From NCBI GenBank assembly GCA_963762565.1, contig CAVXLD010000009.1, forward strand, positions 96,001 through 160,000: a stretch of 64,000 nt of DNA, in the 5' to 3' direction. Each line of letters starts with the position of its first letter. Positions within the stretch are counted from its first letter, which is position 1. The DNA is from an uncultured Verrucomicrobiae bacterium (GTDB lineage: Bacteria; Verrucomicrobiota; Verrucomicrobiia; Chthoniobacterales; JAFAMB01). This document shows, in pieces, positions 18,691 through 32,847 of this stretch. Both the position numbers and the translations under genes were made by a program. The notes beneath the pieces were generated by a model. It was not told where the DNA came from. It saw only the letters and a program-made list of their open reading frames with translations, and did no database searches.

Positions 18691-19957
18691 AGACGGGGCG
18701 CCGCCGGAAAAAACTATCTTCCGAAAAGCCGCCTTGGAGCGGCTTTCTTCTCCGGAACAGCTCGATTATCTGATGTCGGTCACGTCGCCCGTCGGATGGC
18801 TGGCGCTTTCGGCATTGGCGGGCGTCCTTTTCCTGATTGTGCTTTGGGGGTTTCTTGGACGAATTCCCGATACGGTTTCAGGAAGCGGGATCTTGATTCG
18901 CGGCGGCGCGGTTTACGATGTTTCTGCCGGAAGCGATGGATTCATTACTCAGGTGCTGGTGAAAACGGGCGATCAAGTTAAGGCCGGCCAAGTCGTGGCA
19001 AAGATGAGCCAGTCGCAGTTGGAGCTAAAGATCAAGTCAAGCCAGGCCCAGCTAAAGGTCTTGCAGGGGCAGGACGCCGACATGACCAGTCGGGAGGATA
19101 AGAATGACGCCGCCGCGCTGGCGGACTACAAGAAACAAGATCAGGCATTGCTCGATGCCATTGCCAGCTACAAAGTTCAGATCGAAGCCGACCAGAGAGA
19201 ATTCGAAACTAAAGAAAGCCTACTGCAAAAAGGCTTAACCACGCAGGCTGAAGTCAACAAGGCGCGCGATGCCCTTTACGGCGTTAAGGGTCAGGTCGCG
19301 GATACTCAAGTCAAGGAGAGCCAGATTGGGACGGACGAAATCAAGTTAGCCCGCGACACTCAGACGTCTAGAAACGCGCGCCTGAAAGAGATCAACAGCA
19401 CGAAGCTGCAGCTCCAGGAATATATCGCGGAGCGAGATGCCGGAGTTCAAGTGGTTTGCAATTATTCGGGACGAGTGATCGAAAAGCTGGTTGAACGCGG
19501 CTCACCGGTTGTCGCAAAAGACCGGGTCATCACCGTCGAAGCGGAGGACGCGCCGATGCTGGCGGTAATCTATGTCCCCGCCGGAGAAGGGAAGAAAGTT
19601 CTGCCAAACCAGGAAATTCGGGTTTCACCTTCTACAGTGAAGGCTGAAGAGTATGGATTTATTCTCGGGAAAGTGACAAATGTTTCCTATTTCCCAAGCA
19701 CTCCGGAGGGCATGAAAGTTGTACTCAGAAACGAAGAGTTAGTGAAGGACCTTTCTACGACGGGAGCTCCTATTGAGATCACGGGCGACCTCTATCAAGA
19801 TCGGTCGACTAAGAGCGGGTACCGATGGTCTTCTTCGCAGGGACCATCAACGGGGATTTTCAGCGGCACGCTGGCCCAAGCTTCCATTGTGGTTGACCAG
19901 AAGCCGCCCATCGACTTCGTGATTCCGAAAATCAAAGAAATCCTCGGGCTCAAATGA
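18641..19957 (+). CDS. NHLP/NHLM bacteriocin-system HlyD-family membrane fusion protein
   Basis: IFRKAALERLSSPEQLD N-terminus, TM segment, coiled coil, SPSTVKAEEYGFILGKV, SGYRWSSSQGP. Confidence 0.92.
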   Translation: MSLISNTSQATPPGTTKDGAPPEKTIFRKAALERLSSPEQLDYLMSVTSPVGWLALSALAGVLFLIVLWGFLGRIPDTVSGSGILIRGGAVYDVSAGSDGFITQVLVKTGDQVKAGQVVAKMSQSQLELKIKSSQAQLKVLQGQDADMTSREDKNDAAALADYKKQDQALLDAIASYKVQIEADQREFETKESLLQKGLTTQAEVNKARDALYGVKGQVADTQVKESQIGTDEIKLARDTQTSRNARLKEINSTKLQLQEYIAERDAGVQVVCNYSGRVIEKLVERGSPVVAKDRVITVEAEDAPMLAVIYVPAGEGKKVLPNQEIRVSPSTVKAEEYGFILGKVTNVSYFPSTPEGMKVVLRNEELVKDLSTTGAPIEITGDLYQDRSTKSGYRWSSSQGPSTGIFSGTLAQASIVVDQKPPIDFVIPKIKEILGLK

Positions 19958-22137
19958 GCGACGCCATCCTGCCGTCCGACGGGGCGCTCCCCGCTCGCGT
20001 GATGACGCCGACGCTGCTGCAGATGGAGGCCGTGGAATGCGGGGCGGCGGCGTTGGGCATCATCATGCGGTATTACGATCTGTGGCGCCCGCTGGAGCAG
20101 CTCCGAATGGAATGCGGTGTGACCCGCGACGGCAGCAAAGCGAGTAATTTGTTGAAGGCGGCGCGACGTTTCGGGATGGAGGCGAACGGAATCCGTTGCG
20201 AGCTGAACGCCCTGCTAAAAACCGAACCACCGGTGATTCTCTATTGGAATTTCAATCACTTCCTGGTGTACGAGGGCGTTAGCCAAGGAAAAGTTCATTT
20301 GAACGACCCGGCTACCGGTCCTCGTCGAATTAGCATCGAAGAGCTAGAGGCCTCTTTCACCGGGGTAGTGCTGAAGATCAGCCGCGGTCCGGCCTTCGTA
20401 CCGGGCGGGGAAAAACCTAGCCTGTTAACTGCCTTGCGCCGGCGCATTTCGGGGTTCGAAATCGGTTTGAGTTTTGCGTTTTTAACCGGCTTGCTACTGA
20501 TCATTCCGAATATCGTGAACCCATCATTCACCCGGGTGTTCATCGACCAGTACCTGATCGGAGACAAGACGAGCATTCTCCGCCCATTGGTCGCCTGCAT
20601 GGCGGTCTCAATTGGCTTCATGATTTTGCTGCTTTGGTTGCAGCGCCATTTTCTATTGCGGTTGGAGACTAAGCTCGCCCTCACAACTTCCGCTAAGTTC
20701 TTTACCCATGTGGTCAAGCTGCCCATGGAATTCTATTCGCAGCGCTATGCGGGAGAAATCGGATCACGGGTGCTCATCAACGATAAGGTTGCCAAGGTTC
20801 TCTCCGATAAGCTGGTCACGACCGGGCTCGACCTGATGGCCTTGTTGTTCTTTGCCCTCGTCATGATCCAATATGATTTTTGGCTGACGTTGATCTGCGT
20901 CACCTTTGCCTTCCTCAATTTGATTGCGATCAAGGCCGTTCAACGGCCCCGGACCGATGCAAGCTTCCGGCTGCAGCAAGAACGCGGAAAGATGACCGGG
21001 ACTTCGATGAATGGCGTGCAAATGATTGAGACGCTGAAAGCGACCGGCGGTGAAGACGAGTTTTTTGGGCGGTGGTCAGGTTATCAGGCAAAGACTATCC
21101 GAGCGGAACAGGACATGGATTTATACGGTCAAACCTTGTCTGCCGTGCCTCCGCTGACCAAAGGGTTAATCACGGCCACGATCCTCGGGTTTGGTGGCTG
21201 GAGAGTCATGGATGGTCATTTAACCGTGGGTTTGTTAGTCGCCTTCCAATCATTGATGGATGGGTTCACTAAACCGATTACCTCCTTCGTGACATTCGGT
21301 AATGCGCTCCAGGAGACCGGCTCCGACTTGAACCGGCTCGACGACGTCTTGCGTTATGAAACCGATCCTATTTACGCCAGCGATCGCACGGTCAGCCCTG
21401 AGTTCAAGGCCACCATCAAATTGACCGGACTGCTCGAGGTCCGCAATCTGACCTTTGGGTTTAACCCATTAGGCGCCCCGTTAATTGAGAACCTCAGCTT
21501 CAGGGTCCGGCCGGGTGAGCGGGTCGCTTTGGTGGGCGGTAGCGGCAGCGGTAAATCGACCGTTTCCAAACTGGTAGCCGGCCTTTTCAAACCATGGAGC
21601 GGCGAGATCCTGTTCGACGGGGTTCCGCGAACGCAGATCCCTCGGCGTTTGCTGCACAATTCGATCGGTATGGTTGATCAGGATATCTTCATGTTCGAAG
21701 GCACGATTCGCGACAATCTGACCATGTGGAATCCGACAGTCCTCGACTCTCATATCACTCTAGCGTGTAAGGATTCTGCCATAGCGGAGGACGTAGCCAG
21801 CAGGCAAGGAGGTCTTTCCAGCACCGTTGCAGAAGGCGGGGTCAACTTTTCTGGTGGCCAGCGCCAAAGGCTCGAAATCGCTCGAGCCCTGGTGAATTCG
21901 CCAAGTTTTTTGATTCTGGACGAGGCCACTAGCGCGCTAGATCCAACCACTGAGGAAGTGATTGATCGCAACCTGCGTCGACGCGGCTGTTCCTGTTTAA
22001 TCGTAGCACACCGCCTAAGTACGATCCGTGACTGCGATGAGATCATCGTCCTCGAATATGGAAGAGTGGTAGAACGAGGGACGCACGAATCGATGAAAAA
22101 CGCAGGTGGCCCATATTCGAGGTTAATCAGTCATTAG
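19954..22137 (+). CDS. NHLP-type peptidase-containing ABC transporter (C39 + TMD + NBD; LanT-like)
   Basis: TPTLLQMEAVECGAA (catalytic Cys), WNFNHF, NDPA; Walker A GGSGSGKS; FSGGQRQR; ATGA overlap with hlyD. Confidence 0.95.
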   Translation: MSDAILPSDGALPARVMTPTLLQMEAVECGAAALGIIMRYYDLWRPLEQLRMECGVTRDGSKASNLLKAARRFGMEANGIRCELNALLKTEPPVILYWNFNHFLVYEGVSQGKVHLNDPATGPRRISIEELEASFTGVVLKISRGPAFVPGGEKPSLLTALRRRISGFEIGLSFAFLTGLLLIIPNIVNPSFTRVFIDQYLIGDKTSILRPLVACMAVSIGFMILLLWLQRHFLLRLETKLALTTSAKFFTHVVKLPMEFYSQRYAGEIGSRVLINDKVAKVLSDKLVTTGLDLMALLFFALVMIQYDFWLTLICVTFAFLNLIAIKAVQRPRTDASFRLQQERGKMTGTSMNGVQMIETLKATGGEDEFFGRWSGYQAKTIRAEQDMDLYGQTLSAVPPLTKGLITATILGFGGWRVMDGHLTVGLLVAFQSLMDGFTKPITSFVTFGNALQETGSDLNRLDDVLRYETDPIYASDRTVSPEFKATIKLTGLLEVRNLTFGFNPLGAPLIENLSFRVRPGERVALVGGSGSGKSTVSKLVAGLFKPWSGEILFDGVPRTQIPRRLLHNSIGMVDQDIFMFEGTIRDNLTMWNPTVLDSHITLACKDSAIAEDVASRQGGLSSTVAEGGVNFSGGQRQRLEIARALVNSPSFLILDEATSALDPTTEEVIDRNLRRRGCSCLIVAHRLSTIRDCDEIIVLEYGRVVERGTHESMKNAGGPYSRLISH

Positions 22138-22343: not shown

Positions 22344-25292
22344 ATGGCAGTCGTTGCCTCAGCTATCAGCAATGCACTCGTAGCAGCGGGACAGCTACAC
22401 CTTCTTCGTTTGAACGAAACCTTCGTGATCGAAGGGTCGGAGAACGTTTGGTTTATTGAGAGCGGCAAAGTGGACCTTTTCACGGTCCAGCTTCAGGGAA
22501 ACGATGCGACCGGACCGAGAACTCATTTCCTTTCCTTGGAAGCCGGGTCGCTGATCTTTGGGATGGATTTTGAAAGGCAGGAGCACGGATACTGCTTTCT
22601 TCTGACCGGTCAGGAAGGGACCCATCTAATCGAACTTGATCGGGAGAAAGTGAGGCGATTGGCTCGGGACCATGAATTTGCTGCGAGCATCGGCCAACTT
22701 ACCGATCAGTGGCTGGCTCATCTCTCCGCTAGCGTCACGCGAGATGTACGGCCACTTCCGAAAGCCGATGAGCTCTTGGTCGGAGGCAAGGAAATCTTGC
22801 TGCCGCGGGAGAAAATCGCGCGGGCCCGACGTGGCATCGTTTGGGTCCAGGTAATGCGAGGAGAAGCGTTGTATCTCGGAATGGAGGCCGTTTCCCGAAC
22901 GGGCGAAGGCGTGCCGGTCTTGCCTTTGTCGCCGGATACTTGGATCGAATCCTACGACGACAATCTCCTCTCCTGCTTTTCAACACCCACCGCGATCACT
23001 CAGGCCACATTTTGGATGGGCTTGGGTCTCTTCCATGAGGTGTTGTGCCAGTGTGAATTCATTAATAAGAAGCTCAGGATTGTCGATGATTTTAACCGGC
23101 TTCGCGCGCGGGAAGCATCGGGCTTGCGGTCGCGGGACACCGCCTTGCGCGAAATTGCTTCAGTATTGGAACCCCTCGCAGAAGGCCGTGACGGAGCTCT
23201 CCTCGATGCCTCGGCTAACCCGATACTGGCGGCTTGCCGGATAGTTGGTGAAGCCTGCGGAATCCCGGTTAAAGTCCCGCCTGACCTTCATCTGGTCGCC
23301 GACAAACTCGGAGCCATCGCTAAAGCATCGCGATTTCGCTACCGCGCGGTAGCGCTCCGAGGCGATTGGTGGGAGGTCGACCATGGCTCGCTTTTGGCCT
23401 ATCGCGAAGGAACTCGTGACCCGGTTGCGATCGTTAAGACCGGCCCCAAGAGCTACGAACTCGCAGACCCACGAACGCCGAACCGGATCCCAATAACTCC
23501 GGCGGTAGCAGCCACATTGGCACCCTTCGGTGTTTCATTTTATGCCCCCTTACCAGAGACCAAGTTAGGCGCTTGGGACCTGATTAAATTTGGATTGAGA
23601 GATTCTAAATCAGACCTTCGCACCATCCTTCTGATGGGGGTTTTGGTCGGATTATTAGGCATGGTAACGCCTTACTTCAGCGGTCAGATCTTCGATTCGA
23701 TTATCCCGTCCGCTGATCGCAGCCAGTTAACCCAGTTTGCGATCGGGTTATTTGCGGCAGCCCTGGCCACATTCGCTTTCGAGCTGACTCGTTCGATCGC
23801 CGTGCTCCGGCTCACCGGTAAGATGGACTACTCAGTTCAAGCCGGAGTCTGGGATCGCCTCCTGAACTTGCCGTCCACCTTCTTTCGAGAGTACACGGCC
23901 GGCGACCTCACCGACCGCGCGCTGGGCGTCGAACAGATTCGACAAGCGATCTCTCAATCCGGTACGCAGGCGATCGTCGGGGCAATCAGCGCTGTGATTA
24001 CGGGGATCTTTCTTTTCTCCTACAACCTCCAGATGGCGGCCATCGCTATCGCTCTGGTGGCGGTAGGAGTCCTGCTCCCCTGCTCTATCAATTTTCTGCA
24101 GTTACGCAATCAGCAACGCATGTTCAGAATGCGCGGGTTGATCACGGGCCTCGTTCTCCAGCTGATCAGCGGCGTCGCAAAGATCCGAGTTTCCGGAGCA
24201 GAAGACTCCGCATTCCGTGAATGGACTCGCAGATTTTCGGCTCAGAAGCGACTCGCCTTTCGGGTCGGATTCCTCGCCAACATTATCCAGGTCTTCAGCC
24301 GAGTATTTCCCGTCATTGCGACGGCGATCATTTTCTTCGCCTACGGCTGGCTACGAGACCAAGCCGCTGCGAACCATGATAAGTTCGGCATGACGACGGG
24401 CCAGTTCGTTGCCTTCAACGGCGTCTTCATGAATGTCCTCTCAAGCATGTTGGCGCTGAGCGGGGTTGTTCTCGATCTGCTGATCATCTTTCCGTTGTTT
24501 CAACGGCTACGGCCGATCATCCAAAGTGAACCTGAGATCGATGAAGCTAAAGCTCATCCTGGAGAATTGAGCGGTGAAGTGGAGGTTTATCATCTCTCAT
24601 TTCGCTACACCGAGGATGGGCCATTGATTCTGAAGGATGTCTCTCTCTTAATCCGACCAGGGGAATTCGTTGCGCTAGTAGGCGGCTCCGGATCTGGAAA
24701 ATCCACCCTGCTCCGTCTGCTCCTTGGCTTTGAGAAACCGGAGTCCGGAGCGATTCTTTACGATAGCCAGGAGCTCTCTTCTTTGGACCTGCGGGCGGTC
24801 CGGCGGCAAATCGGAGTCGTCCTGCAATCAAGCAAGCTGATGCCAACAGACATCTATCGGAACATCATCGGGTCGCATACAACTCTTACACTAAACGACG
24901 CTTGGGAGGCCGCCAGAATGGCTGGCCTCGATCGAGATATCAAAAATATGCCCATGGGCATGAACACCGTCGTATCCGAAGGTGGCGGCACGTTTTCGGG
25001 CGGTCAGCGGCAACGTCTTATGGTGGCGCGAGCGCTGGTGAATCGGCCTAGAATTGTTTTTTTTGACGAGGCAACCAGCGCGATGGATAACGAAACGCAA
25101 CGTACGGTCACTGAAAGCCTGGACGCCATGCAAGCAACTCGGATCGTTATCGCCCATCGATTGAGCACCATTATTAATGCGGACCGAATTTTCGTCCTGA
25201 AATATGGCGAGCTGGTTCAGACCGGTGCCTACACGGAATTGATGAATCAACCGGGGCCATTTGCCGATCTTGCCAAACGACAGCTGGCTTAA
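22344..25292 (+). CDS. NHLM bacteriocin-system ABC transporter, second (non-proteolytic) subunit
   Basis: N-terminal cNMP-binding-like region (WFIESGKVDLF), degenerate C39-like region (LRGDWWEVDHG), TMD, NBD with GGSGSGKST and FSGGQRQR. Confidence 0.92.
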   Translation: MAVVASAISNALVAAGQLHLLRLNETFVIEGSENVWFIESGKVDLFTVQLQGNDATGPRTHFLSLEAGSLIFGMDFERQEHGYCFLLTGQEGTHLIELDREKVRRLARDHEFAASIGQLTDQWLAHLSASVTRDVRPLPKADELLVGGKEILLPREKIARARRGIVWVQVMRGEALYLGMEAVSRTGEGVPVLPLSPDTWIESYDDNLLSCFSTPTAITQATFWMGLGLFHEVLCQCEFINKKLRIVDDFNRLRAREASGLRSRDTALREIASVLEPLAEGRDGALLDASANPILAACRIVGEACGIPVKVPPDLHLVADKLGAIAKASRFRYRAVALRGDWWEVDHGSLLAYREGTRDPVAIVKTGPKSYELADPRTPNRIPITPAVAATLAPFGVSFYAPLPETKLGAWDLIKFGLRDSKSDLRTILLMGVLVGLLGMVTPYFSGQIFDSIIPSADRSQLTQFAIGLFAAALATFAFELTRSIAVLRLTGKMDYSVQAGVWDRLLNLPSTFFREYTAGDLTDRALGVEQIRQAISQSGTQAIVGAISAVITGIFLFSYNLQMAAIAIALVAVGVLLPCSINFLQLRNQQRMFRMRGLITGLVLQLISGVAKIRVSGAEDSAFREWTRRFSAQKRLAFRVGFLANIIQVFSRVFPVIATAIIFFAYGWLRDQAAANHDKFGMTTGQFVAFNGVFMNVLSSMLALSGVVLDLLIIFPLFQRLRPIIQSEPEIDEAKAHPGELSGEVEVYHLSFRYTEDGPLILKDVSLLIRPGEFVALVGGSGSGKSTLLRLLLGFEKPESGAILYDSQELSSLDLRAVRRQIGVVLQSSKLMPTDIYRNIIGSHTTLTLNDAWEAARMAGLDRDIKNMPMGMNTVVSEGGGTFSGGQRQRLMVARALVNRPRIVFFDEATSAMDNETQRTVTESLDAMQATRIVIAHRLSTIINADRIFVLKYGELVQTGAYTELMNQPGPFADLAKRQLA

Positions 25293-25348
25293 AGTAGCGA
25301 AACTGGTAGCCAGCCATACCTCTACGGACCTAACGCGCGGCTCACCCT

Positions 25349-26497
25349 ATGAAGAGCGATAGCACGGCCAATGTAGTTCCGTTTCCAAACGCTACGGTCG
25401 ATCAGAAAATTGACGCCAACATGACGGAAATCGCCCTAGACATTCGGGCGAAGGCGCTGGAGAAATGGGGAGCAAATCAAGCCGTCGAAGTCGTGGGTTT
25501 CAGCCAGAAAATTAGGGACACGCTCGATAAGGTTCAGAAGTTCGCCAAGTTCAATCAAACGATCCTGATCACCGGTGAAAGCGGCGTTGGGAAGGAACTC
25601 TTTGCTAAAGCTTGCTATCTGCTCAGCGCTCGAATCAAGGCGCCTTTTGTCATCGTCAACTGCCCGCAATACAGCGAAGGTAATGTAACCGTCAGTGAGC
25701 TTTTTGGTCATGTGAAGGGCAGCTTCACCGGCGCGATTGCCGATCATAAGGGCCTGTTCGATGCTGCCGAAGGCGGCGCCGTTTTTCTCGATGAAGTCGG
25801 AGACCTTCCTCTCAATGCACAGACCATGCTGCTGCGAGCGCTCGCTGAAAAAGAAGTAAAGCCTTTGGGGTCGAACAAAACCTATTCCGTCGATGTCAGG
25901 ATCATTGCCGCTACCAATCGCCCACTACGGGATATGGCGGCGTGCGGTCAGTTCCGGCAAGACCTCTACTTTCGTCTCCGCTATTTTCCACTTGAAATCC
26001 CGGCGCTGCGCGATCGAGAGGAGGACTGGAAGGTCTTGATCAGTCATTTTGTCGATCGGCTAAACCAGGAATATAACCTGAAGAAAGCGTTCTCCCCTAT
26101 CTCCATCAAGTTCTTGGAGCGTTACCCCTGGCCGGGCAACGTCAGGGAGCTGAAAAGCATCGTCACCATTGGGTTCTCCATGGCCGACTCGAAGTACATC
26201 GAACCAGACCACTTTGTTAGCGACCTGCGACAGGCGAATTTGCCCGGTCCCGACACCGGTAAGAGCGAGTTATTCGAACATATGGTTGAGGACGGCGGAT
26301 CGTTTTGGGATGTCGTTCATCAGCCTTTTCTCAACCGAGATCTTAATCGAGCGCAGGCACGAGAGATTATTTCGCAGGGGCTATTGACCGCTAGAGGCAG
26401 CTACCGGCGGATGAGCGTTCTCTTCAATATTAAGCCGGATCAATATCAAAAATTCATGGACTTCCTCCGCCATCATCGGTTGAAGCCGGAGGAATAG
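25349..26497 (+). CDS. Sigma54 enhancer-binding protein lacking an N-terminal sensory domain
   Basis: GESGVGKE, ELFGHVKGSFTGA, FLDEVGD, WPGNVREL; only ~45 aa precede the AAA+ domain. Confidence 0.9.
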   Translation: MKSDSTANVVPFPNATVDQKIDANMTEIALDIRAKALEKWGANQAVEVVGFSQKIRDTLDKVQKFAKFNQTILITGESGVGKELFAKACYLLSARIKAPFVIVNCPQYSEGNVTVSELFGHVKGSFTGAIADHKGLFDAAEGGAVFLDEVGDLPLNAQTMLLRALAEKEVKPLGSNKTYSVDVRIIAATNRPLRDMAACGQFRQDLYFRLRYFPLEIPALRDREEDWKVLISHFVDRLNQEYNLKKAFSPISIKFLERYPWPGNVRELKSIVTIGFSMADSKYIEPDHFVSDLRQANLPGPDTGKSELFEHMVEDGGSFWDVVHQPFLNRDLNRAQAREIISQGLLTARGSYRRMSVLFNIKPDQYQKFMDFLRHHRLKPEE

Positions 26498-26700
26498 GCG
26501 TTTGGCGTTTGGCGTTCGGCGTTCGGCGTTCGGCGGGTTCGGGCGGGTGGCCCGGGAGGGATCCGCGTCCCCGCGATCCGTGGTTATCGAAGCCGAGGAC
26601 ATGCTGTAATCGCGGAACAAGAATATACCTCTAGGTGACGGCACGTCTTTCGCGGCGCGCAGGACGCGCGCCCTCCCTAACCGCCAACCGCCAAACGCGC
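26497..26700. repeat. Composite palindromic element bounded by heptamer arrays
   Basis: (ggcgttY)x5 on the left, aaccgccaaccgccaaacgc on the right, inner IR gggagg..gcgtcc / ggacgcgcgccctccc. Confidence 0.7.
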
Positions 26701-26749
26701 AAAATGGAGCCCCCGTTCCATTTTCGAGAATCGACGTTCCATTTTCGAG
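26701..26749 (+). promoter_or_regulatory. Candidate upstream activator sequence for the sigma54 promoter
   Basis: Exact 15-bp direct repeat cgttccattttcgag at 26714 and 26735 (21-bp period) plus an inverted half aaaatgga at 26701. Confidence 0.6.
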
Positions 26750-26829
26750 CCGGTTGCACACCGGCACAAAAACAGAGCATTTGACATAAATATCTTATAA
26801 TGAAAGACTTAAACCTCTATCCCCGATTG

Positions 26830-26845
26830 TGGCACGGCTGCTGCT
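26830..26845 (+). promoter_or_regulatory. Sigma54 -24/-12 promoter of the precursor operon
   Basis: TGGCACGGCTGCTGCT matches TGGCAC-N5-(T/C)TGC(A/T); 55 nt upstream of the NHLP ATG, which has a GAGGAG RBS. Confidence 0.8.
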
Positions 26846-26900
26846 TAATGGATTTGCAGACATGCCGGTGGCTGTCGAACTCCAGTAGAGGAGATTTGTA

Positions 26901-27215
26901 ATGGACCCCAACTCAACCGTCTCGCGTAAAGATATAAGGGAAGCCCTAGTGCGGGCGGCTTTGAAAGACGAGGCGTTTCGGGAGTCTCTTTTGGCGAACC
27001 CAAAGTTCGCAGTTGAGAGAGCGTTGGGTAGAACCTTACCGGATCGCCTACAAGTCGTTCTTTTACGAGAGACAGACAACCTCATGTATATCGTGTTGCC
27101 GAAGGATTTTCCTGATGACGCAGCACATCTCACGGATGCGGAACTCGAAAACGTGGCCGGAGGCTTCCTTAGCGCAGACAACAATATGCTGTCTCCTCAG
27201 GATCCGGCGTTCTGA
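26901..27215 (+). CDS. NHLP (nitrile hydratase-like leader) RiPP precursor-like peptide; tail FLSADNNMLSPQDPAF has no Cys
   Basis: ALKDEAFRESLLANPK...LPDRLQVVLLRETDNLMYIVLP...LTDAELENVAGG is the canonical NHLP leader with a double-Gly site. Confidence 0.92.
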   Translation: MDPNSTVSRKDIREALVRAALKDEAFRESLLANPKFAVERALGRTLPDRLQVVLLRETDNLMYIVLPKDFPDDAAHLTDAELENVAGGFLSADNNMLSPQDPAF

Positions 27216-27269
27216 GAATTCCAGTCCGATTAACACCAACGCAAACCAGAAAAATAAAAAACCACTACC

Positions 27270-27392
27270 ATGAGCGAAGAAATCCAGAAACCCGAGACGG
27301 TCAGCGACGAACAACTTGAAGATGTTGCCGGCGGTACGTTCGACAATAACTCCTGCAACGCCCTGATCGAGGCCACCGTTATCGTTGGGTAA
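27270..27392 (+). CDS. Lanthipeptide precursor copy 1: MSEEIQKPETVSDEQLEDVAGG-TFDNNSCNALIEATVIVG
   Basis: Translated by hand; double-Gly leader with V-12/L-7/V-4; core has Thr, Ser and Cys; lies upstream of lanM. Confidence 0.9.
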   Translation: MSEEIQKPETVSDEQLEDVAGGTFDNNSCNALIEATVIVG

Positions 27393-27471
27393 GACATTCG
27401 TCTTCCTTCCGATACCGGTTCAGATCAACTGCACACCCAACCCAACCCAAACCCACCAACTAGACCACCAT

Positions 27472-27594
27472 ATGAGCGAAGAGATCCAGAAGCCTGAGAC
27501 TGTTAGCGACGAGCAACTCGAAGATGTTGCCGGCGGCACGTTCGACAATAACTCCTGCAACGCCCTGATCGAAGCCACCGTCATCGTTGGGTAA
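27472..27594 (+). CDS. Lanthipeptide precursor copy 2 (identical protein)
   Basis: ATG 27472 to TAA 27594; only synonymous differences from copy 1. Confidence 0.9.
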   Translation: MSEEIQKPETVSDEQLEDVAGGTFDNNSCNALIEATVIVG

Positions 27595-27674
27595 GACATT
27601 CGTCTTCCTTCCGATACCGGTTCAGATCAACTGCACACCCAACCCAACCCAAAAACCACCAACTAGACCACCAT

Positions 27675-27797
27675 ATGAGCGAAGAGATCCAGAAGCCTGA
27701 GACTGTTAGCGACGAGCAACTCGAAGATGTTGCCGGCGGTACGTTCGACAATAACTCCTGCAACGCCCTGATCGAAGCCACCGTCATCGTTGGGTAA
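27675..27797 (+). CDS. Lanthipeptide precursor copy 3 (identical protein)
   Basis: ATG 27675 to TAA 27797; near-identical DNA to copy 2. Confidence 0.9.
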   Translation: MSEEIQKPETVSDEQLEDVAGGTFDNNSCNALIEATVIVG

Positions 27798-27874
27798 GAC
27801 ATTCGTCTTCCTTCCGATACCGGTTTAGATCAGCTGCACTGCCAACCCAACCAACCCACCAACCAAATCATAAT

Positions 27875-27997
27875 ATGAGCGAAGAGATCCAGAAGCCTGA
27901 AAACGTTAGCGATGAGCAACTCGAAGATGTTGCTGGCGGCACGTTCGATAACAACTCGTGCAACGCCCTGATTGAGGCCACTGTCATCGTTGGATAA
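27875..27997 (+). CDS. Lanthipeptide precursor copy 4 (T10N in the leader, identical core)
   Basis: ATG 27875 to TAA 27997; 7 synonymous and 0 non-synonymous core differences from copy 1. Confidence 0.9.
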   Translation: MSEEIQKPENVSDEQLEDVAGGTFDNNSCNALIEATVIVG

Positions 27998-28021
27998 CAC
28001 GATAGGCCAGAATTAAGTAAT

Positions 28022-28058
28022 GCCGCCGCCGGATTTCTTCGGCGGCGGCTTTATATTT
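28022..28058 (+). terminator. Rho-independent terminator-like hairpin between the precursors and lanM
   Basis: gccgccgccg-gatttctt-cggcggcggc followed by tttatattt. Confidence 0.75.
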
Positions 28059-28064
28059 GCTGCT

Positions 28065-31000
28065 ATGACGAGGGGATCGATCGCCTCGATATTGGCGCGC
28101 AGCGCTCCATTGCAAGAACGTCTGGCTGCTACCGATCCTCAGCAGAATCCCGGAGAGACACCCGCCCTTTTGGAGTGTTGGCGAGGCGCCTTGGATACCG
28201 CAACTCACCGGCTGTTCGATGAGCGGCTTGCGTCGCTCGGCCTTTCCTTGGAACAGGCTCGACTTCAGCTTGGGATGCTTGGGCGCGAACCAAATCGAGA
28301 AAGTAAATGCTTTGATGCATTCTTGAAGGCTTTCTCCTACCCGCCTTACCCCGGCTTTGTTGCTCTCAAACTCCCGTTTGTACCCCTCTGGGCGCCCGCA
28401 GCGTCCTTCGCGCATGACCTGGTCTTCCGAGGCGCAGAGGATAGCCGGCTCATTTCTGAGGATGCTTCTCGAAATTTGTCGCAATCGTTACTGGAGGAGC
28501 TCTGTCGCGTCGCCGCCGAGCCCGTTTATCTCTTGTTTCAAGAAGAGCGTGCCAAGGGGCAGTCGTTTGAGGAATTTGTCAGGCTATCCTTGAAATCGGA
28601 CGGAGAACGGATCTTTGGTCGCTTCCCGGCCCTTGCTCGTTGCCTCCTTGTTGTATTCAGGAACTGGATTAGTGGCACTCAGCTCTTTATGAGGCGGCTT
28701 GCGGCCGATTGGGCAGAGTTCCATGCGTTCCTTCCTGAACTGAAAAGCGATGATCCGATCCAGTCGATTTCGACAGGTTTTTCGGACCGGCACGACGACG
28801 GTCTTCAAGTCTTGCTTGTCGAGTTTTCGGACGGCTCCCGGGTGCTTTATAAACCCAAGGACATGTCGTTGGAGGCGCGGCTGCCCCAAATCAACGAATG
28901 GCTAGACGCGGAAGGTTTCCCGTTCAAACTGAGATTTCCGGTTTCGCTGCAAAAGGAAGGCTACGGATGGTCCGCATTCATCCGGCCGGAGCCCTGTCAC
29001 TCAATCGAAGAGGTAAAAACGTTTTTCGAACACGCCGGGGCTCTCCTCTGCCTCGCCCACACATTGAACGGCAAGGACCTTCTTCTAGAAAACATCGTCG
29101 CCTGTGGCAGCAATCCGGTTCCGATCGATCTCGAAACTTTCTTTCAGCCGCAAGCCCAAAGAGCGGATCGGATCGGTTCGCCTCCCGATCGAGATCCGCC
29201 AGAATGCCTGCGCCGCAGTTCCGTTCTCGAAACCGGAATGCTCCCGTATTGGCACATCGCCGGACTGGATATTCCCTGCGATCTCAGCGGCTTAAGCGGT
29301 TCCAAGGAAAATCTGTCCCAGATCAGGCAGCCCTACTGGGACGCCGTGAACACGGATCAGATGAAGCGTTCCGATCGCGGGTATAAGTCACCGGAGAAAG
29401 CTAACCGGCCCGTTTACCATGGTGCATTTCAACATCCGCGAGACTATGAGGGCGCGCTGGTCGATGGCTTCTGCCAGCTTTATCGGTTTCTGTGCGTCCG
29501 AAAGGAATCATTTATCAATTTCCTGCAAACGTTTTCGAACGCTCGAACGCGACTGATCTTCCGATCAACCCAAATGTACGGGTTGCTAGCGAAGCAATCG
29601 TTAAGAGCCGAAAACCTGACGGATGGAATTCTGCGGAGCTTGGTATTTGAAACCCTCTATCGGCCGGCGCTTAAGGGTAATTATCTATCCAACTTTCTCA
29701 AGGCGATCCTGGATCGGGAGGTACGCTGTTTGGAAAACCTCGATATCCCGAGGTTCTATATTCGCCTCGATTCGGACGCGCTGACGATCGATCACGGGCT
29801 TGAGATCCCGCATTTCCTTGTGGAATCACCCTTGGAAACAGTCAGGCAGCGAGTACTGGCGATGTCCTCAGAAATCGAAGAATATCATGTGGAAAATCTC
29901 CAGGAATCGCTCAGAAGGCAGCCCAGAATGGTTGGCCCGAGTCAGACCCGTGGCGAGATCCTCGACCTCGCTGGCAACCTGGTTGCCGAGATTCTGCGTC
30001 GGAGCAGAAATGACCCTGCAAAAAATCTGTGGCCACTGCCAACCTTCGTGAAGGAGCCTCTTCCCGAGCATGAACGTGACGGGCTCTATTTGGGAGATAT
30101 CGGAGTCGCGATATTTCTGGCGGCTTGGGATTGCGCGGGAGGGACTTCCATTTCAAAAGAACCGCTCGATACGTTGTTCTTGCGGTTGCAAGGTCGTCGA
30201 TTCCCACAAAACATCCCTCTAGGCATTTGCAACGGGCTTGGTTCATACGCCTATGGTTGTCTAGTCCTGGCAAAGCTCACCAAGCAGACCCGGTGGCTCG
30301 AGCTTTCCGACCGGTTTGGGGAAGAGATTTCCGTCGGACGTCTGACATCAGAAGCGGACCCCGATATCGTCTACGGTTTGGCGGGAGCAATTGTTTGCCT
30401 GGTTCGGCTACACCAAGCGACGAAAGACCAGAGTTTCCTGGAACGGGCACAGCAAGGTTTGGACATCCTTAGCTCCAGATTTATACACGGAACAGGGTGG
30501 GTCCGACCGAACGGAGAAGCTTTGGTCGGTTTCGCCCATGGCTCTGCAGGGATCGCTTTTGCTGCCCTGACGTTGGCCGAGGCGTCAAAAGAGGAGCGGT
30601 GTTTAGCACTGGCAAGAGATGCTTTTGCACTAGATCGTGGATTTTACTCGGAATCGGAAAAAAATTGGATGTCCACTACTCAATGCGAGGGAAATGCGTT
30701 GCGAGCTTGGTGCAGCGGTTCGCCTGGCATGACGCTAGCAAGACTAACAGCTCGGCGTCTCATGGAAGATCCGGTCTTAGGCGCCGAAATCGAACGGACG
30801 TGGCGGAGCTTTCCCGATCTGCTCGGCCTCGATCACTGGTGCTGCGGCAATTTAGGACTGGTAGAGCTTCTCTGGCATGCCGCCCGAAAACTCGACCGGG
30901 AAGACCTGCGCACGAAAGCCGACACTTTGCTTGGCAAAACTGTTCAGCGAGCGCTCAGGAGTGCGTTTTCTAGGTTCAATCCCGAGTTGGGCCACAACTT

Positions 31001-31106
31001 CTGTTTCCAACCCAGCCTGTTCCGCGGGTCCGCCGGTTTGGGTTATACGTTGCTGCGGTTTCTGCACCCCGATAAACTGCCTTGTATCCTCGCATTTGAG
31101 GTGTAG
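28065..31106 (+). CDS. lanM: Class II lanthipeptide synthetase
   Basis: Dehydratase motifs SDRH, YKPK, DLLLEN, IDLET and RLIFRSTQMY; LanC-like cyclase with GFAHGSAG, WCSG, WCCGNLG and SLFRGSAG; ATG 28065 chosen because ATG 28020 lies in the hairpin. Confidence 0.95.
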   Translation: MTRGSIASILARSAPLQERLAATDPQQNPGETPALLECWRGALDTATHRLFDERLASLGLSLEQARLQLGMLGREPNRESKCFDAFLKAFSYPPYPGFVALKLPFVPLWAPAASFAHDLVFRGAEDSRLISEDASRNLSQSLLEELCRVAAEPVYLLFQEERAKGQSFEEFVRLSLKSDGERIFGRFPALARCLLVVFRNWISGTQLFMRRLAADWAEFHAFLPELKSDDPIQSISTGFSDRHDDGLQVLLVEFSDGSRVLYKPKDMSLEARLPQINEWLDAEGFPFKLRFPVSLQKEGYGWSAFIRPEPCHSIEEVKTFFEHAGALLCLAHTLNGKDLLLENIVACGSNPVPIDLETFFQPQAQRADRIGSPPDRDPPECLRRSSVLETGMLPYWHIAGLDIPCDLSGLSGSKENLSQIRQPYWDAVNTDQMKRSDRGYKSPEKANRPVYHGAFQHPRDYEGALVDGFCQLYRFLCVRKESFINFLQTFSNARTRLIFRSTQMYGLLAKQSLRAENLTDGILRSLVFETLYRPALKGNYLSNFLKAILDREVRCLENLDIPRFYIRLDSDALTIDHGLEIPHFLVESPLETVRQRVLAMSSEIEEYHVENLQESLRRQPRMVGPSQTRGEILDLAGNLVAEILRRSRNDPAKNLWPLPTFVKEPLPEHERDGLYLGDIGVAIFLAAWDCAGGTSISKEPLDTLFLRLQGRRFPQNIPLGICNGLGSYAYGCLVLAKLTKQTRWLELSDRFGEEISVGRLTSEADPDIVYGLAGAIVCLVRLHQATKDQSFLERAQQGLDILSSRFIHGTGWVRPNGEALVGFAHGSAGIAFAALTLAEASKEERCLALARDAFALDRGFYSESEKNWMSTTQCEGNALRAWCSGSPGMTLARLTARRLMEDPVLGAEIERTWRSFPDLLGLDHWCCGNLGLVELLWHAARKLDREDLRTKADTLLGKTVQRALRSAFSRFNPELGHNFCFQPSLFRGSAGLGYTLLRFLHPDKLPCILAFEV

Positions 31107-31220
31107 GAATCAATCGTTTTTCGGGCTGCTGCTCGCGCTCGTCGTCGTCCTCGTCCTCCGAGCAGAACCCAGTTAGTTTACGGGGCTGATCTAATCGAGC
31201 GCTGTGGCGGAGCCCACGAC

Positions 31221-31454
31221 TGGAGGGAGCCGCTTTGTAGCATTGAAGCTCCATCGGTTGGCAGACAGGCGGCTCCCGAGAACGTCTCCACGTGCCGCAG
31301 TTCTATCGCCGTCGTGTCTCTCCGCCGTACCAAACCAAATGCGATGGGAAATTGCTGCCGCTGGGCAATTCCCGGGAGCCGCTTGTCTACCCCGAAAACT
31401 TTCGGTGGCTGCCAACTTGCATAACTGCCAAGCTACAAAGCGGCTCCCCTCCAG
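31221..31454. repeat. Nested palindromic repeat, family A
   Basis: tggagggagccgctttgtagc...gctacaaagcggctcccctcca with inner ggcggctcccg/cgggagccgc. Confidence 0.85.
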
Positions 31455-31479
31455 GCCCTGGGCGCCAAACGAGCCCTCC

Positions 31480-32352
31480 ATGGAACTTATCTACACCCTA
31501 CACCCCACACCGACGCCCGAAGAGCGGTATCGCATCGTTGATCCGCTGATCGCTTACAACGAGGCACAGGCAGGGCCAAGAAACTCGAAGGAATTCGCTT
31601 TTTTTGTGCGTTCTGAAACAGGTGAGCTCGTCGGAGGGTTATTGGGCTCGACTCACTTCAACCATTTCTTTGTCTCAGCGATTTTCATCGACCAGGAGTT
31701 TCGACGCGAAGGGATTGGGCGTGAACTGATCAGACGCGCAGCAGCTTTGGCGCTTGAGCGAGGGTGCGATATAATCTACCTGGACACCTTCGATTTCCAG
31801 GCACCCGGTTTCTACGAGAAACTCGGGTTCAAAGTTTTCGGGGCGCTGAACGACTATCCGACGGGCCACCGACGTCTCTATTTCGTGAAACGACTTGGTG
31901 CAGGCGGCGAGGCCCAAGGACGCACTACAAAACTGAACTTCACCCTTCAACCCCAGCCAACGCCGGACGAAAAAAAGCGCATCATTGATCCCTTGGTCGC
32001 TTACAACGAAGCGCAAGTAGGGCCTGAGGACTGGAGGGAATTCGCGTTGTCTGTACGCTCAGAGACCGGCGAGCCCGTTGCTGGGCTGTTAGGCTTTACA
32101 CACTGGAACCATTTCTTTGTGGCAGCCCTGTACGTCGAGCAACTATTCCGGAAAGAAGGGATCGGGTGTGAATTGATGAAACGCTCAGAAGCCTTGGCGC
32201 TTGAGCAAGGCTGCGATGTAGTCTATCTGGACACCTTCGATTATCAGGCGCCCGAGTTCTATGAAAAACTCGGGTTTAAAGTTTTCGGCAGATTGGAAGA
32301 CTATCCGCCCGGCCACCGACGTTTTTATCTAGTGAAACGGCTTGGGAGGTAG
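31480..32352 (+). CDS. Tandem-duplicated GNAT-family N-acetyltransferase
   Basis: Two highly similar ~140-aa repeats, each with FRxEGIG and YLDTFD(F/Y)QAPxFYEKLGFKVFG; ATG 31480 lies just downstream of the repeat element. Confidence 0.9.
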   Translation: MELIYTLHPTPTPEERYRIVDPLIAYNEAQAGPRNSKEFAFFVRSETGELVGGLLGSTHFNHFFVSAIFIDQEFRREGIGRELIRRAAALALERGCDIIYLDTFDFQAPGFYEKLGFKVFGALNDYPTGHRRLYFVKRLGAGGEAQGRTTKLNFTLQPQPTPDEKKRIIDPLVAYNEAQVGPEDWREFALSVRSETGEPVAGLLGFTHWNHFFVAALYVEQLFRKEGIGCELMKRSEALALEQGCDVVYLDTFDYQAPEFYEKLGFKVFGRLEDYPPGHRRFYLVKRLGR

Positions 32353-32478: not shown

Positions 32479-32847
32479 CTACTGCCTCGCGGAAACGACC
32501 TTGTTACCGTGTCCCATGGTTTCGACTTTTGGCTCCGCTCCATTCAGTCCCCGACGATAGGTCAACAAGTTATTGTGGCCCGAGGCAACAATCTCGCCGA
32601 CCGCATCCAGCACGACTTTATTATCGTGCCCGAGAATCTGGACCTTCGAACATTCTCCAGTGATGGTGATTTCGTCATCGTTACCAACGATCACGAAATC
32701 TTTGCCGCCGCCTTTATATTTTAGCTTCTGCTGAGTTCCAACGATCTCCTCTACGTTGCCGGATCTACCGGTTGCCAGGTTTTGCCCCAGAACCAAAGGA
32801 GCCGAACAGGCAATCATTGCCAAGACAAACCAGGAAAGGGTTTTCAT
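32479..32847 (-). CDS. Secreted DUF3060-like beta-repeat protein
   Basis: Signal peptide; IVGNDDEITITGECSKVQILGHDNKV...GHNNLLTY pattern. Confidence 0.75.
   Translation of the reverse strand: MKTLSWFVLAMIACSAPLVLGQNLATGRSGNVEEIVGTQQKLKYKGGGKDFVIVGNDDEITITGECSKVQILGHDNKVVLDAVGEIVASGHNNLLTYRRGLNGAEPKVETMGHGNKVVSARQ

Follow-up and report, generated by a model that had tools for sequence, protein, structure and literature searches.

Four tandem copies of one precursor gene in a probable sigma-54-controlled class II lanthipeptide cluster of a Verrucomicrobiota bacterium

In the window, by which we mean the whole 64,000-nucleotide (64 kb) stretch of DNA analysed here, four short open reading frames follow each other on the + strand in front of a gene for a lanthipeptide synthetase (lanM). 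We regard it as quite probable that they are tandem lanA copies in a class II lanthipeptide cluster under sigma-54 control, and that the promoter, the leaders of the copies and a hairpin after the last of them give an excess of precursor. The array, the pattern of selection on it, the gene content of the cluster and the regulatory motifs with their conservation were read directly from the sequence. The array itself supports a gene-dosage reading, and three conserved features, namely the sigma-54 promoter with its repeats, the A/C leaders and the hairpin before lanM, point to a high predicted output of precursor.

The four-copy array

The four genes, each encoding 40 amino acids from an ATG start, lie on the + strand at 27270..27392, 27472..27594, 27675..27797 and 27875..27997 (copies 1 to 4). 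An earlier note on this DNA had placed the ATGs at 27270, 27472, 27675 and 27875 with a period of 200-203 bp, and the ATG-to-ATG distances are indeed 202, 203 and 200 bp, with spacers of 79, 80 and 77 nt between the copies. Tandem Repeats Finder gives 27270-27997 as a single array (period 203, 3.6 copies, 92% matches, score 1202). The only + strand ORF of at least 60 aa in the array, 27385-27594 (69 aa), is copy 2 with an upstream TTG start, so the note was right that the ORF track holds copy 2 alone and with a wrong start.

Peptide comparison confirms the claim of a shared core: the 18-aa sequence TFDNNSCNALIEATVIVG follows ...VAGG identically in 4/4 copies, and the sole residue difference among the four precursors is, as claimed, T10N in the leader of copy 4. 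The genes themselves have diverged. Between copies 1 and 4, Nei-Gojobori counts for the core are sd=7.0 and nd=0.0, matching the seven synonymous and zero non-synonymous changes counted before, and for the whole gene sd=17.5 and nd=1.5 (pS 0.69 vs pN 0.016). There are 20 variable coding columns across the four copies, 19 at codon position 3 and one at position 2, a bias with a binomial P=1.2e-8 (vs 1/3). The outer copies diverged synonymously only, T10N apart, and this shows that each copy has been kept functional. Copies 2 and 3, on the other hand, are one base apart and spacers 1 and 2 are near-identical, which indicates that recent duplication or gene conversion accounts for how alike the inner copies are. 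The purifying selection claimed earlier is therefore evidenced, at the level of the sequence, by the outer copies and not by the inner ones.

Similar clusters occur in metagenome-assembled genomes (MAGs) of Verrucomicrobiota/Chthoniobacterales, and the syntenic relatives (loci L001 to L005) carry one to four short precursor copies each; any one locus has identical or nearly identical cores, and these vary from locus to locus. L001 and L005 have one copy each, so the array would not be required for the system, with the reservation that repeats may be collapsed in MAGs assembled from short reads. In L002, three identical-core copies differ by 2-8 synonymous and 0 non-synonymous core changes. Some diversification is also seen in the relatives: the core of copy 3 in L002 is at pN 0.24 to its neighbours, and V/I variants occur in L003 and L004. 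The claim of a homogeneous and not a diversified array stands for the window.

The precursor peptide and its synthetase

Double-glycine leaders have GG at -2/-1 and hydrophobic residues at -4, -7 and -12. The 22-residue leader of the short precursors, ...V(-12)SDEQL(-7)EDV(-4)AGG, shows all of these and a C39 ABC transporter is encoded in the locus; cleavage of the leader is predicted. The core TFDNNSCNALIEATVIVG contains T1, S6, C7 and T14, thus both the Ser/Thr and the Cys residues of a LanM precursor, and the last short gene ends 67 nt 5' of the lanM start. The 40-aa peptides matched no Pfam family, even with the E-value limit relaxed to 10, whereas the protein database lists a precomputed PF28158.1 for 6 of the 16 hits. 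Metagenome proteins, P0002-P0010, are the only relatives in which the core of the window recurs. The CTB family bacteriocin model NF038167 scores them at 23.9 bits, below its cutoff of 32, with residues 1-27 (the leader) alone matching. Against the NHLP model TIGR03793 there is no match at E up to 0.01, hence they are not members, and the likeness of their leader to the NHLP precursor of the same locus is limited to the last 19 residues of the leader-core junction of that precursor (10/19 identical). A full-text literature search for LEDVAGG, LEEVAGG and LENVAGG found no papers.

The common leader is carried by 43 distinct family cores, of which 27 have exactly one Cys and 12 have none; a Thr is found 6-7 residues past the Cys in 17 of the 27 one-Cys cores. 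The cyanobacterial loci L006-L009 have the same leader motif on Cys-free cores. Judged from these sequences, the conserved family scaffold may consist of Asp as the third core residue and of one Cys with a Ser/Thr 6-7 residues after it, an arrangement in which the Cys would sit N-terminal to its dehydro partner.

The other precursor of the locus, at 26901..27215 (+), has an NHLP leader (TIGR03793 71.8 bits, cutoff 50.9) and is 81-83% identical in L001-L004. Its core, FLSADNNMLSPQDPAF, is Cys-free, and an NHLP peptide without Cys is found in 6/6 loci, so that it does not combine Ser/Thr with Cys, which leaves only the short peptides as substrates in which a ring can form. A leader-motif scan of the whole 64 kb gave five precursors, the four with one identical core and this NHLP peptide.

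LanM is encoded at 28065..31106 (+) and scores 591.5 bits with TIGR03897 (cutoff 304). Its Pfam domains, DUF4135 (3.6e-97) and LANC_like (1.1e-44), give it both a dehydratase and a cyclase. The ORF opens at 28020, but translation probably starts from the ATG at 28065, because relatives align only from residue 15-32 onward and the L001 LanM begins right after its T-run. The protein is similar to LicM2 (PDB 6st5; 8.4e-50), with WCCG aligned to the LCHG (CHG) of LicM2. This CCG zinc-site motif is present in 6/6 loci, and the CCG motif, with its third Cys as zinc ligand, is described as a trait of ProcM-like enzymes (PMC8524650).

LanM identity tracks core identity. L003 and L004 have a core in common and LanM proteins 82% identical, L001 and L002 have a core in common and LanM proteins 68.5-70% identical, and the window, with a different core, has a LanM at 36% identity, while the exporter genes stay at 79-96% identity among the window and L001-L004. 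The short precursors are thereby tied to LanM, and gene content likewise upholds the claim that they are the precursor genes of the lanM cluster.

The surrounding cluster

The gene order is TolC-like outer-membrane protein, HlyD, C39 ABC, second ABC, activator, NHLP precursor, the four short precursors, hairpin, LanM and GNAT. The TolC-like outer-membrane efflux protein (16657..18690, +; Pfam OEP 2.1e-15) has syntenic counterparts in L001, L003 and L004 that are 39-40% identical to it. It is followed by a HlyD-type adaptor of NHLP bacteriocin export (18641..19957, +; TIGR03794 323.6 bits, cutoff 156.2), which is ~74% identical in L001-L004, and by an ABC exporter (19954..22137, +; TIGR03796 1033.8 bits, cutoff 853.3) that carries a C39 peptidase domain at its N-terminus (Pfam Peptidase_C39, residues 19-144, 5.9e-32), the predicted double-glycine leader peptidase. 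A second ABC permease/ATPase of NHLP export lies at 22344..25292 (+; TIGR03797 900.4 bits, cutoff 709.4).

Downstream of lanM, a tandem-domain GNAT acetyltransferase (31204..32352, +; Pfam Acetyltransf_1 in two stretches) is matched by L001-L004 in its second half only, at 67-72%. A DUF3060 protein on the - strand (32479..32847; Pfam DUF3060 6.1e-13) is conserved at the edge of the cluster, being 48-53% identical in L001-L004. A PIMT-like methyltransferase (36359-37558), a downstream JmjC protein and PepF were considered as tailoring or processing genes and left out of the cluster, since L001-L005 hold no counterparts of them. No immunity genes were recognisable in the cluster context, which therefore lends no support to a bacteriocin role. 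A search for Chthoniobacter together with lanthipeptide, judged by title, returned nothing on such a cluster.

Promoter, leaders and hairpin

Next to the precursors lies the gene of a sigma-54 enhancer-binding activator (25349..26497, +; Pfam Sigma54_activat at residues 49-215, 1.2e-58) that has no N-terminal receiver domain and is 81-84% identical in L001-L004. Between this gene and the NHLP precursor, a sigma-54 type promoter, TGGCACGGCTGCTGC, is found at 26830..26844 (+), with its -24 GG and -12 GC and one mismatch to TGGCAC-N5-TTGC; sigma-54 dependence is predicted from this site and the adjacent activator. A site with at most one mismatch occurs upstream of the NHLP gene in 6/6 loci; in L001-L004 the distance to the NHLP start is 72-74 nt. 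In L002, where three copies form a separate sub-array, a further site of this kind stands 109 nt ahead of it. Two direct repeats, CGTTCCATTTTCGAG, with 21-bp spacing at 26714..26749 (+), are candidate activator sites. The pair of GTTCCATTTT at 21-bp spacing, ~93-96 nt upstream of -24, is shared by the window, L001, L003 and L004 (4/6 loci), and a search for it in L002 and L005 did not find it.

Pattern scans by themselves gave sigma-54 sites with up to two mismatches (46 matches vs 58.7 expected) and terminator-like sites (2 vs 2.6 expected) no more often than chance, and the weight of the promoter and terminator calls therefore lies in position and conservation. There are no sigma-70 promoter-like sites in 26300-28400. 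A sigma-54 promoter in each repeat unit was considered and rejected, as the GG-GC distance in CCGGTTCAGATCAACTGCAC is 12 nt and not 10. Among the papers listed in a literature search, none unites sigma-54, lanthipeptide and enhancer-binding protein.

Each short gene is preceded by an A/C-rich, G-poor leader. Scanned in 40-nt windows, the + strand of the 64 kb reaches 85% A+C or more in just four clusters, and these are the leaders, at 27226..27269, 27419..27471, 27621..27674 and 27831..27874 (+). The 40 nt 5' of the four ATGs have 82-93% A+C and 3-5% G (copy 2, 93% A+C and 3% G; copy 3, 93% A+C; copy 4, 82% A+C), compared with a median of 52.5% and a maximum of 70% A+C upstream of the 34 long ORFs of the window. 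The leaders are unpaired in the predicted fold of the whole 849-nt transcript. The best generic anti-SD pairing of the four short genes is +0.5 to +2.4 kcal/mol, and the upstream NHLP gene, with an SD-like GGAG, reaches -9.1 kcal/mol; the spacers are thus as C/A-rich and as devoid of an SD as the note had stated. In L001-L005, the 50 nt upstream have at least 68% A+C in 10 of the 12 short precursor genes, the richness being weaker in L002 (58% for copy 2, 64% for copy 3). Good anti-SD pairing is found in only 8 of the 34 long ORFs of the window and some Verrucomicrobia are described as SD-scarce (PMC10783764); with SD use this low, an absent SD alone says little. A - strand A/C-rich stretch near 38110-38160 has no ORF start 3' of it and was set aside.

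CA-rich/ACA elements are described as translation enhancers in enterobacteria (PMC3879156), and both these and unstructured ribosome standby sites are likewise A/C-rich unpaired stretches immediately 5' of a start codon that raise initiation (PMC3879156; PMC5934652). The cases described are enterobacterial and work alongside an SD, whereas the window has 35-45 nt of nearly pure A/C and no SD. Because the leaders neither base-pair nor carry an SD, we propose that they may act as open ribosome landing sites.

A stem-loop spans the stop codon of copy 1 (27375..27419, +) and is repeated at 27577-27621 and 27780-27824, with MFE of -19.6, -17.6 and -17.6 kcal/mol and z of -3.05, -2.31 and -2.27. Nothing comparable was found in five spacers of L002-L004 (z -0.16 to -1.61), which leaves its meaning uncertain. 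An Rfam E-value scan of 25000-29000 gave no matches, hence no known riboswitch, leader or sRNA is recognised in the spacers.

The gap between the array and lanM holds a 12-bp GC-rich hairpin followed by TTTATATTTG (28022..28059, +), a candidate terminator-like attenuator. The hairpin (28022-28049) has an MFE of -30.2 kcal/mol and a z of -4.83, and none of 200 shuffles was as stable; a hairpin of 11-13 bp stands at the same position in 5/5 relatives and thus in 6/6 loci. The T-tract after it has interruptions in the window and also in L003 and L004, so that the hairpin could be simply a 3' stabiliser. In lantibiotic operons of the nisA-nisB type, an attenuator lies between the structural gene and the modification genes, so that only some of the transcripts extend into the gene for the enzyme. 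The arrangement in the window is similar; its hairpin, though, follows a four-gene array and stands ~15 nt before lanM, and its function is predicted from fold and conservation.

Discussion

A mechanism that would fit these features starts with the adjacent activator, which may bind the paired GTTCCATTTT repeats and fire the sigma-54 promoter at 26830. A single transcript would then carry the NHLP precursor first and the four short precursors after it, each of the short genes being translated from its near-pure A/C leader. The hairpin would stop or stabilise most transcripts, and read-through alone would reach lanM. In this way four genes, efficient initiation and attenuation could together supply many precursors per synthetase. 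LanM would dehydrate Ser/Thr and link the single Cys into one thioether ring, for which Cys7 to Thr14 is the family-wide candidate. The C39 domain of the ABC exporter would presumably cut after VAGG, and the HlyD and TolC-like partners would export an 18-residue peptide that is anionic and C-terminally hydrophobic. The array itself probably arose by tandem duplication. Gene conversion or unequal crossing-over would have evened out its middle, and purifying selection holds all four copies to one peptide.

One question is whether the number of copies matters at all. It may be a neutral by-product of unequal crossing-over, with four copies no better than one and the peptide kept by selection and conversion. 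The single base between copies 2 and 3, the near-identical spacers 1 and 2 and the range of one to four copies among the syntenic relatives all agree with such an origin. Yet copies 1 and 4 have reached pS 0.69 with one residue change, where a useless old copy should have decayed; the pattern recurs in L002, L003 and L004; and A/C leaders at each copy with a hairpin after the last one fit a design for output. We therefore hold neutral copy number to be unlikely. The near-identity of copies 2 and 3 and their spacers also bears on the assembly, as the count of inner units could be mis-assembled from short reads. An assembly artefact in the array or in the number of its copies is nevertheless hardly credible, given copies distinguishable at 20 coding positions, spacers of three different lengths (79, 80 and 77 nt) and independent MAGs with arrays of 3-4 copies. 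In addition, the independent metagenome protein P0003 (98% identical) has an N-terminal read-through that begins in the last part of the copy before it, which places a tandem pair outside the window as well.

Another option concerns what LanM does with these peptides. An enzyme of the CCG type, characteristic of ProcM-like enzymes (PMC8524650), could be substrate-tolerant and gather copies that will diverge, and the array would be an early stage of prochlorosin-like diversification. The divergent copy of L002 (core pN 0.24), the V/I variants of L003 and L004 and the 43 distinct cores with a common leader across the family would suit this idea, but 0 non-synonymous against 7 synonymous core changes in the window speak against it, and cores that are uniform inside each locus and vary from locus to locus along with LanM are the opposite of what one tolerant enzyme should produce; we consider it very unlikely. 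The short peptides could instead be unmodified double-glycine bacteriocin-like peptides that share the exporter, with LanM acting elsewhere, as the sub-threshold CTB family match of the leader (23.9 bits, cutoff 32), the Cys-free cores of L006-L009 under the same leader motif and the 12/43 family cores without Cys might suggest. This, too, is highly improbable, because the genes lie directly 5' of lanM in 6/6 loci, the Cys-free NHLP peptide leaves LanM no other ring-forming substrate in any of the six, 27/43 family cores have one Cys (17/27 with Thr 6-7 residues after it) and LanM divergence follows core divergence. A dosage array that serves its own LanM thus remains our preferred reading.

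Arrays of identical precursor genes are known from other RiPP systems. The rumA1A2A3 genes are described as an array of structural genes for the same prepeptide (PMC6071512), B. cereus has six identical cerecidin genes and strain FRI-35 has 3+3 identical genes (PMC3951391), and thurincin H is encoded by three identical genes, thnA1-A3, for a 40-aa precursor (PMC8172795). The explanation of identical copies as a means to a higher precursor-to-enzyme ratio is also already in print (PMC13343206). The window, with four adjacent genes, one core and one modifying enzyme, is an array of the same type and not a new principle, both identical-gene arrays and their dosage rationale having been described.

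The closest comparison is the ruminococcin A locus (rumA1A2A3 + rumM + rumT), in which several tandem genes again code for one and the same prepeptide; like the window, it combines a double-glycine leader with one LanM and a peptidase-ABC exporter (PMC6071512). That locus is from a Firmicute and has two-component regulation, immunity genes and a multi-ring product. The window differs in its sigma-54 promoter and enhancer-binding protein, a diderm HlyD and TolC-like outer-membrane protein, a CCG LanM and a core with a single Cys, and it has an NHLP precursor in addition. The clusters of cerecidin, of other B. cereus LanM and of thurincin H also have 3-6 identical tandem precursor genes per enzyme (PMC3951391; PMC8172795), and they differ in phylum, regulation and product, thurincin H being a sactipeptide made with a radical SAM enzyme.

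Prochlorosins are often small and contain few rings. Their ProcM-like systems in marine cyanobacteria share the CCG zinc-site LanM with the window (PMC8524650), and they likewise have NHLP/Nif11-type leaders and NHLM-type ABC/HlyD export genes. Unlike those leaders, the short 22-residue leader of the window is not of the NHLP/Nif11 kind. Prochlorosin genomes have many different cores per enzyme, whereas the five precursors in the 64 kb are four copies of one core and a Cys-free NHLP peptide, far from a hypervariable set. The contrast with prochlorosin loci drawn in the earlier note is apt, as the synthetase here is of the same ProcM-like CCG type.

The locus overturns nothing in current understanding. 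Its value is that of a clean natural case in which the precursor-to-enzyme ratio of a RiPP pathway would be set by four layers together: an alternative-sigma promoter with its activator, gene amplification, SD-independent open leaders, and attenuation ahead of lanM. The A/C-only leaders could become a portable expression element for SD-scarce bacteria. As a tentative and rather speculative extension, the cluster may be the high-output module of an uncharacterised Verrucomicrobiota family that makes a bulk non-antibiotic peptide, surface-active or signalling, and in which core plus LanM are swapped as a cassette in a conserved chassis of regulator and exporter. The suggestion in the note of a bulk compound with a structural, surfactant or signalling role is likewise conjectural. 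The locus is also useful for asking whether the CCG site truly accompanies substrate tolerance, since it extends ProcM-like (CCG) synthetases to soil Verrucomicrobiota, where the enzyme would serve one amplified core and not a library.

Four tandem precursor genes

Four ATG-started ORFs of 40 codons each lie in tandem on the + strand (copy 1, 27270-27392; copy 2, 27472-27594; copy 3, 27675-27797; copy 4, 27875-27997), and Tandem Repeats Finder reports them as a single array at 27270-27997, with a period of 203, 3.6 copies, 92% matches and a score of 1202. The encoded leader is MSEEIQKPE(T/N)VSDEQLEDVAGG, followed by the 18-residue core TFDNNSCNALIEATVIVG, which is identical in 4/4 copies; the sole protein change is at residue 10, Thr in copies 1-3 and Asn in copy 4. 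By the Nei-Gojobori method, copies 1 and 4 show 7.0 synonymous and 0 non-synonymous differences in the core, and 17.5 and 1.5 over the whole gene (pS 0.69, pN 0.016). Because 19 of the 20 variable coding columns among the four copies fall on codon position 3 and one on position 2 (P = 1.2e-8), we can determine that the + frame of the array is coding and that purifying selection acts on it. Only one base distinguishes copy 2 from copy 3, and spacers 1 and 2 hardly differ; the centre of the array is young or has been homogenised, and selection is evident from the outer copies 1 and 4, which have diverged. The feature is real, and the tandem genes, the common core with its single T10N change, the 7:0 count and the selection, all described in an earlier note, are confirmed. 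That note also saw copy 2 alone in the ORF track, with a wrong start, which is explained by the fact that the only + strand ORF of at least 60 aa in the array is a TTG-started 69-aa form of copy 2.

The spacers had been described as C/A-rich and without a Shine-Dalgarno (SD) sequence, and this holds: the last 40 nt before each short-precursor ATG are 82-93% A+C and 3-5% G, and generic anti-SD pairing of the four genes is +0.5 to +2.4 kcal/mol, compared with -9.1 for the NHLP precursor gene. Upstream of the 34 long ORFs of the window the A+C content over 40 nt has a median of 52.5% and a maximum of 70%, and on the + strand of the 64 kb, stretches of 40 nt reach 85% A+C or more in four clusters only, the A/C leaders of the short genes, which are unpaired in the predicted fold of the 849-nt array transcript. 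Just one other such stretch exists, at 38110-38160 on the - strand, and no ORF start was found directly behind it. In the related loci, 10 of the 12 short precursor genes have at least 68% A+C in the upstream 50 nt. Since anti-SD pairing reaches -4 in only 8/34 long ORFs (whose start codons are uncertain), SD use is generally low in the window, in agreement with the SD-scarce Verrucomicrobia reported in PMC10783764. CA-rich/ACA elements are described as translation enhancers in enterobacteria in PMC3879156.

The gene cluster and its regulation

Pfam and NCBIfam place the array inside a co-directional cluster, which on the + strand encodes a TolC-like outer-membrane protein (16657-18690), an NHLP-system HlyD adaptor (18641-19957), an NHLP-system ABC exporter with a C39 peptidase domain (19954-22137; 1033.8 bits), a second ABC subunit (22344-25292), a sigma-54 enhancer-binding activator (25349-26497), an NHLP-leader precursor (26901-27215; 71.8 bits), the four short precursors, the class II lanthipeptide synthetase LanM (ORF opening at 28020, ending at 31106; 591.5 bits) and a two-domain GNAT (31204-32352); a DUF3060 protein lies on the - strand (32479-32847). 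No immunity-type genes were recognised within the conserved part of the cluster. The GNAT beside lanM has 382 aa and two acetyltransferase domains, while the GNAT of the relatives matches its second half only (residues ~230-381); it could serve peptide acetylation or another role. Just upstream of the cluster lies a full-length carboxylic acid reductase (12219-15743, - strand; NF041592, 1656 bits, cutoff 1300), with no counterpart found in the relatives' flanks. A PIMT-like methyltransferase of 399 aa (36359-37558, - strand) scores below threshold with the FxLD-system and ATP-grasp-maturase-system methyltransferases (138.9 and 131.9 bits; cutoffs 320 and 380); because no counterpart was found in the five Chthoniobacterales loci (L001-L005), it is probably outside the cluster and was rejected as a member.

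The LanM cyclase domain has WCCG at the position of LCHG in LicM2 (PDB 6st5), and LanM is of the CCG type in 6/6 loci (window and L001-L005), a motif described in PMC8524650 as a hallmark of ProcM-like enzymes. A hairpin (28022-28049) overlaps the initial codons of the longest LanM ORF. Since LanM of the relatives aligns only from residue 15-32 onward, and that of L001 begins directly behind its T-run, the true start is most likely the ATG at 28065. This hairpin, located after copy 4, has 12 bp with 10 GC pairs and is followed by TTTATATTTG (MFE -30.2 kcal/mol, z -4.83, 0/200 shuffles as stable); one of 11-13 bp occurs at the equivalent site in 5/5 relatives, with a clean T-run in L001, L002 and L005. 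As there is no promoter room behind it, lanM transcription would have to read through the hairpin. The stop codons of copies 1-3 are spanned by a weaker stem-loop (z -2.3 to -3.05), for which no conservation was found in the relatives.

A sigma-54-type site, TGGCACGGCTGCTGC, lies at 26830-26844 with one mismatch to the consensus. The pattern with up to two mismatches is not enriched by itself (46 observed, 58.7 expected); a site with at most one mismatch stands ahead of the NHLP gene in 5/5 relatives, 72-74 nt before its start in L001-L004, and L002 has a further one, 109 nt ahead of its separate sub-array. GTTCCATTTT occurs twice with 21-bp spacing in the window, L001, L003 and L004, at a distance of about 93-96 nt from the -24 element on its upstream side, the expected place for candidate activator binding; the repeats were not found in L002 and L005. 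No sigma-70-like sites were found in 26300-28400 and no Rfam matches in 25000-29000. Heptamer repeats run directly past the activator stop (window 26498-26535, GCGTTTG/GCGTTCG; L001 8936-9009, GTTCACC/GTTTGCC; L002 7594-7670, AACGGCG-like), conserved in position and loosely in sequence.

Precursor families

The short leader has a double-glycine layout, and its end resembles that of the NHLP leader (10/19 identical). The short precursor reaches 23.9 bits with the CTB bacteriocin model, below the cutoff of 32, and has no match in a Pfam search. PF28158.1 is a precomputed Pfam accession on six related proteins (P0001, P0004, P0009, P0011, P0015 and P0016), yet a Pfam search of these peptides themselves returned nothing; therefore, a recent Pfam family may already include the short leader or peptide. 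With E up to 10, a word-indexed search gave 16 proteins (12 at E <=2e-10), all of metagenome origin, several with the same core and others with the same leader and other cores. Searching 1.84 billion representatives with a profile yielded 51 at E up to 1e-3. Among 61 collected family proteins there are 43 distinct cores, of which 32 have Asp at position 3 and 27 have exactly one Cys; in 17 of these 27 a Thr follows 6 or 7 residues past the Cys, and two family cores lack Ser/Thr ahead of the Cys. This pattern suggests a conserved single ring from Cys to a downstream Ser/Thr, which in the window would be Cys7-Thr14.

Four family proteins (P0034, P0046, P0049 and P0056) carry two leader-plus-core units per polypeptide (e.g., ...SDEQLEGVSGG-core-...SDEQLEGVAGG-core), an in-frame multiplication of product as opposed to separate genes. 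The NHLP precursor core has no Cys in 6/6 loci (e.g., FLSADNNMLSPQDPAF, FLSAENNTFLGPDSSL) and so cannot form a lanthionine ring alone; this precursor is conserved far better than LanM (62-83% versus 36% identity to the window).

Related loci

Scanning a single genome for each species gave nine loci, L001-L005 from Verrucomicrobiota/Chthoniobacterales MAGs and L006-L009 from cyanobacteria. The cyanobacterial loci have only the leader motif in common with the window; the leader is common to different phyla, with unrelated cargo. There, SDEQLEDVAGG (at 10001 in L006 and L007, 9192 in L008 and 3104 in L009) is followed by long polar cores that lack Cys and are internally repetitive, such as NKLQQQRLEHLDNQTKSVKDIQ..., and L007-L009 have a fragment of HlyD close by on the opposite strand.

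All of L001-L005 are syntenic with the window, which, judged by these nearest relatives, probably belongs to the same phylum. In L001-L004, HlyD, both ABCs, the activator and the NHLP precursor share 74-84% identity with it, but LanM only 36%; the values for L005 are 72% (second ABC), 66% (activator), 62% (NHLP precursor) and 36% (LanM). Short precursors number one in L001 and L005, three in L003 and L004 (each with one V/I variant) and four in L002 (three with one core and one diverged; 3/4 upstream of the NHLP gene), numbers that assembly of the MAGs may have lowered by collapsing repeats. Identical cores within a locus show synonymous differences only (in L002, 2-8 synonymous and 0 non-synonymous), whereas between loci the cores differ. 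LanM identity tracks core identity, with 82% between L003 and L004, 68.5-70% between L001 and L002, about 53-55% between these two pairs and 36% between the window and all other loci; the exporter genes of the window and L001-L004 share 79-96%. Over all pairs, the divergence of LanM exceeds that of the ABC exporter genes by 11-48 points. L001 and L004 share 96% in the activator, 94% in the NHLP precursor, only 87% in the first ABC and 54% in LanM, and L001 and L002 share 95% in the first ABC and 91% in the activator. With such conflicting gene-by-gene identities the L001-L004 clusters are mosaic, which suggests recombination among related clusters.

Proposed mechanism and known systems

The best-supported reading is an operon in which sigma-54 and the activator would drive one transcript with the NHLP precursor and the four short precursors, the latter translated from their open A/C leaders, and in which a leaky terminator would set them apart from lanM. 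Together this would give a high precursor-to-enzyme ratio. LanM would then install the single thioether ring, the C39 ABC exporter would cleave after GG, and the HlyD and TolC-like proteins would export the product from the diderm cell. The predicted mature peptide has two acidic residues, no basic ones and a C-terminal half that is hydrophobic; its role may lie in competition, in signalling or in surface activity.

Arrays of identical structural genes are on record for ruminococcin A (PMC6071512), for cerecidins and other B. cereus clusters (PMC3951391) and for thurincin H (PMC8172795). The window has its enzyme type, NHLP leader and exporter set in common with prochlorosin systems, but not their defining feature of many cores. 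The earlier note's interpretation, gene dosage for a single product, is partly supported: it is reasonable, yet not new, since PMC13343206 already argues that identical copies probably boost productivity by raising the precursor-to-machinery ratio. A search of the main texts in a limited collection of papers found none on this Verrucomicrobiota peptide family and none on sigma-54 control of any lanthipeptide operon. The locus is a known type of array with some uncommon regulatory details.
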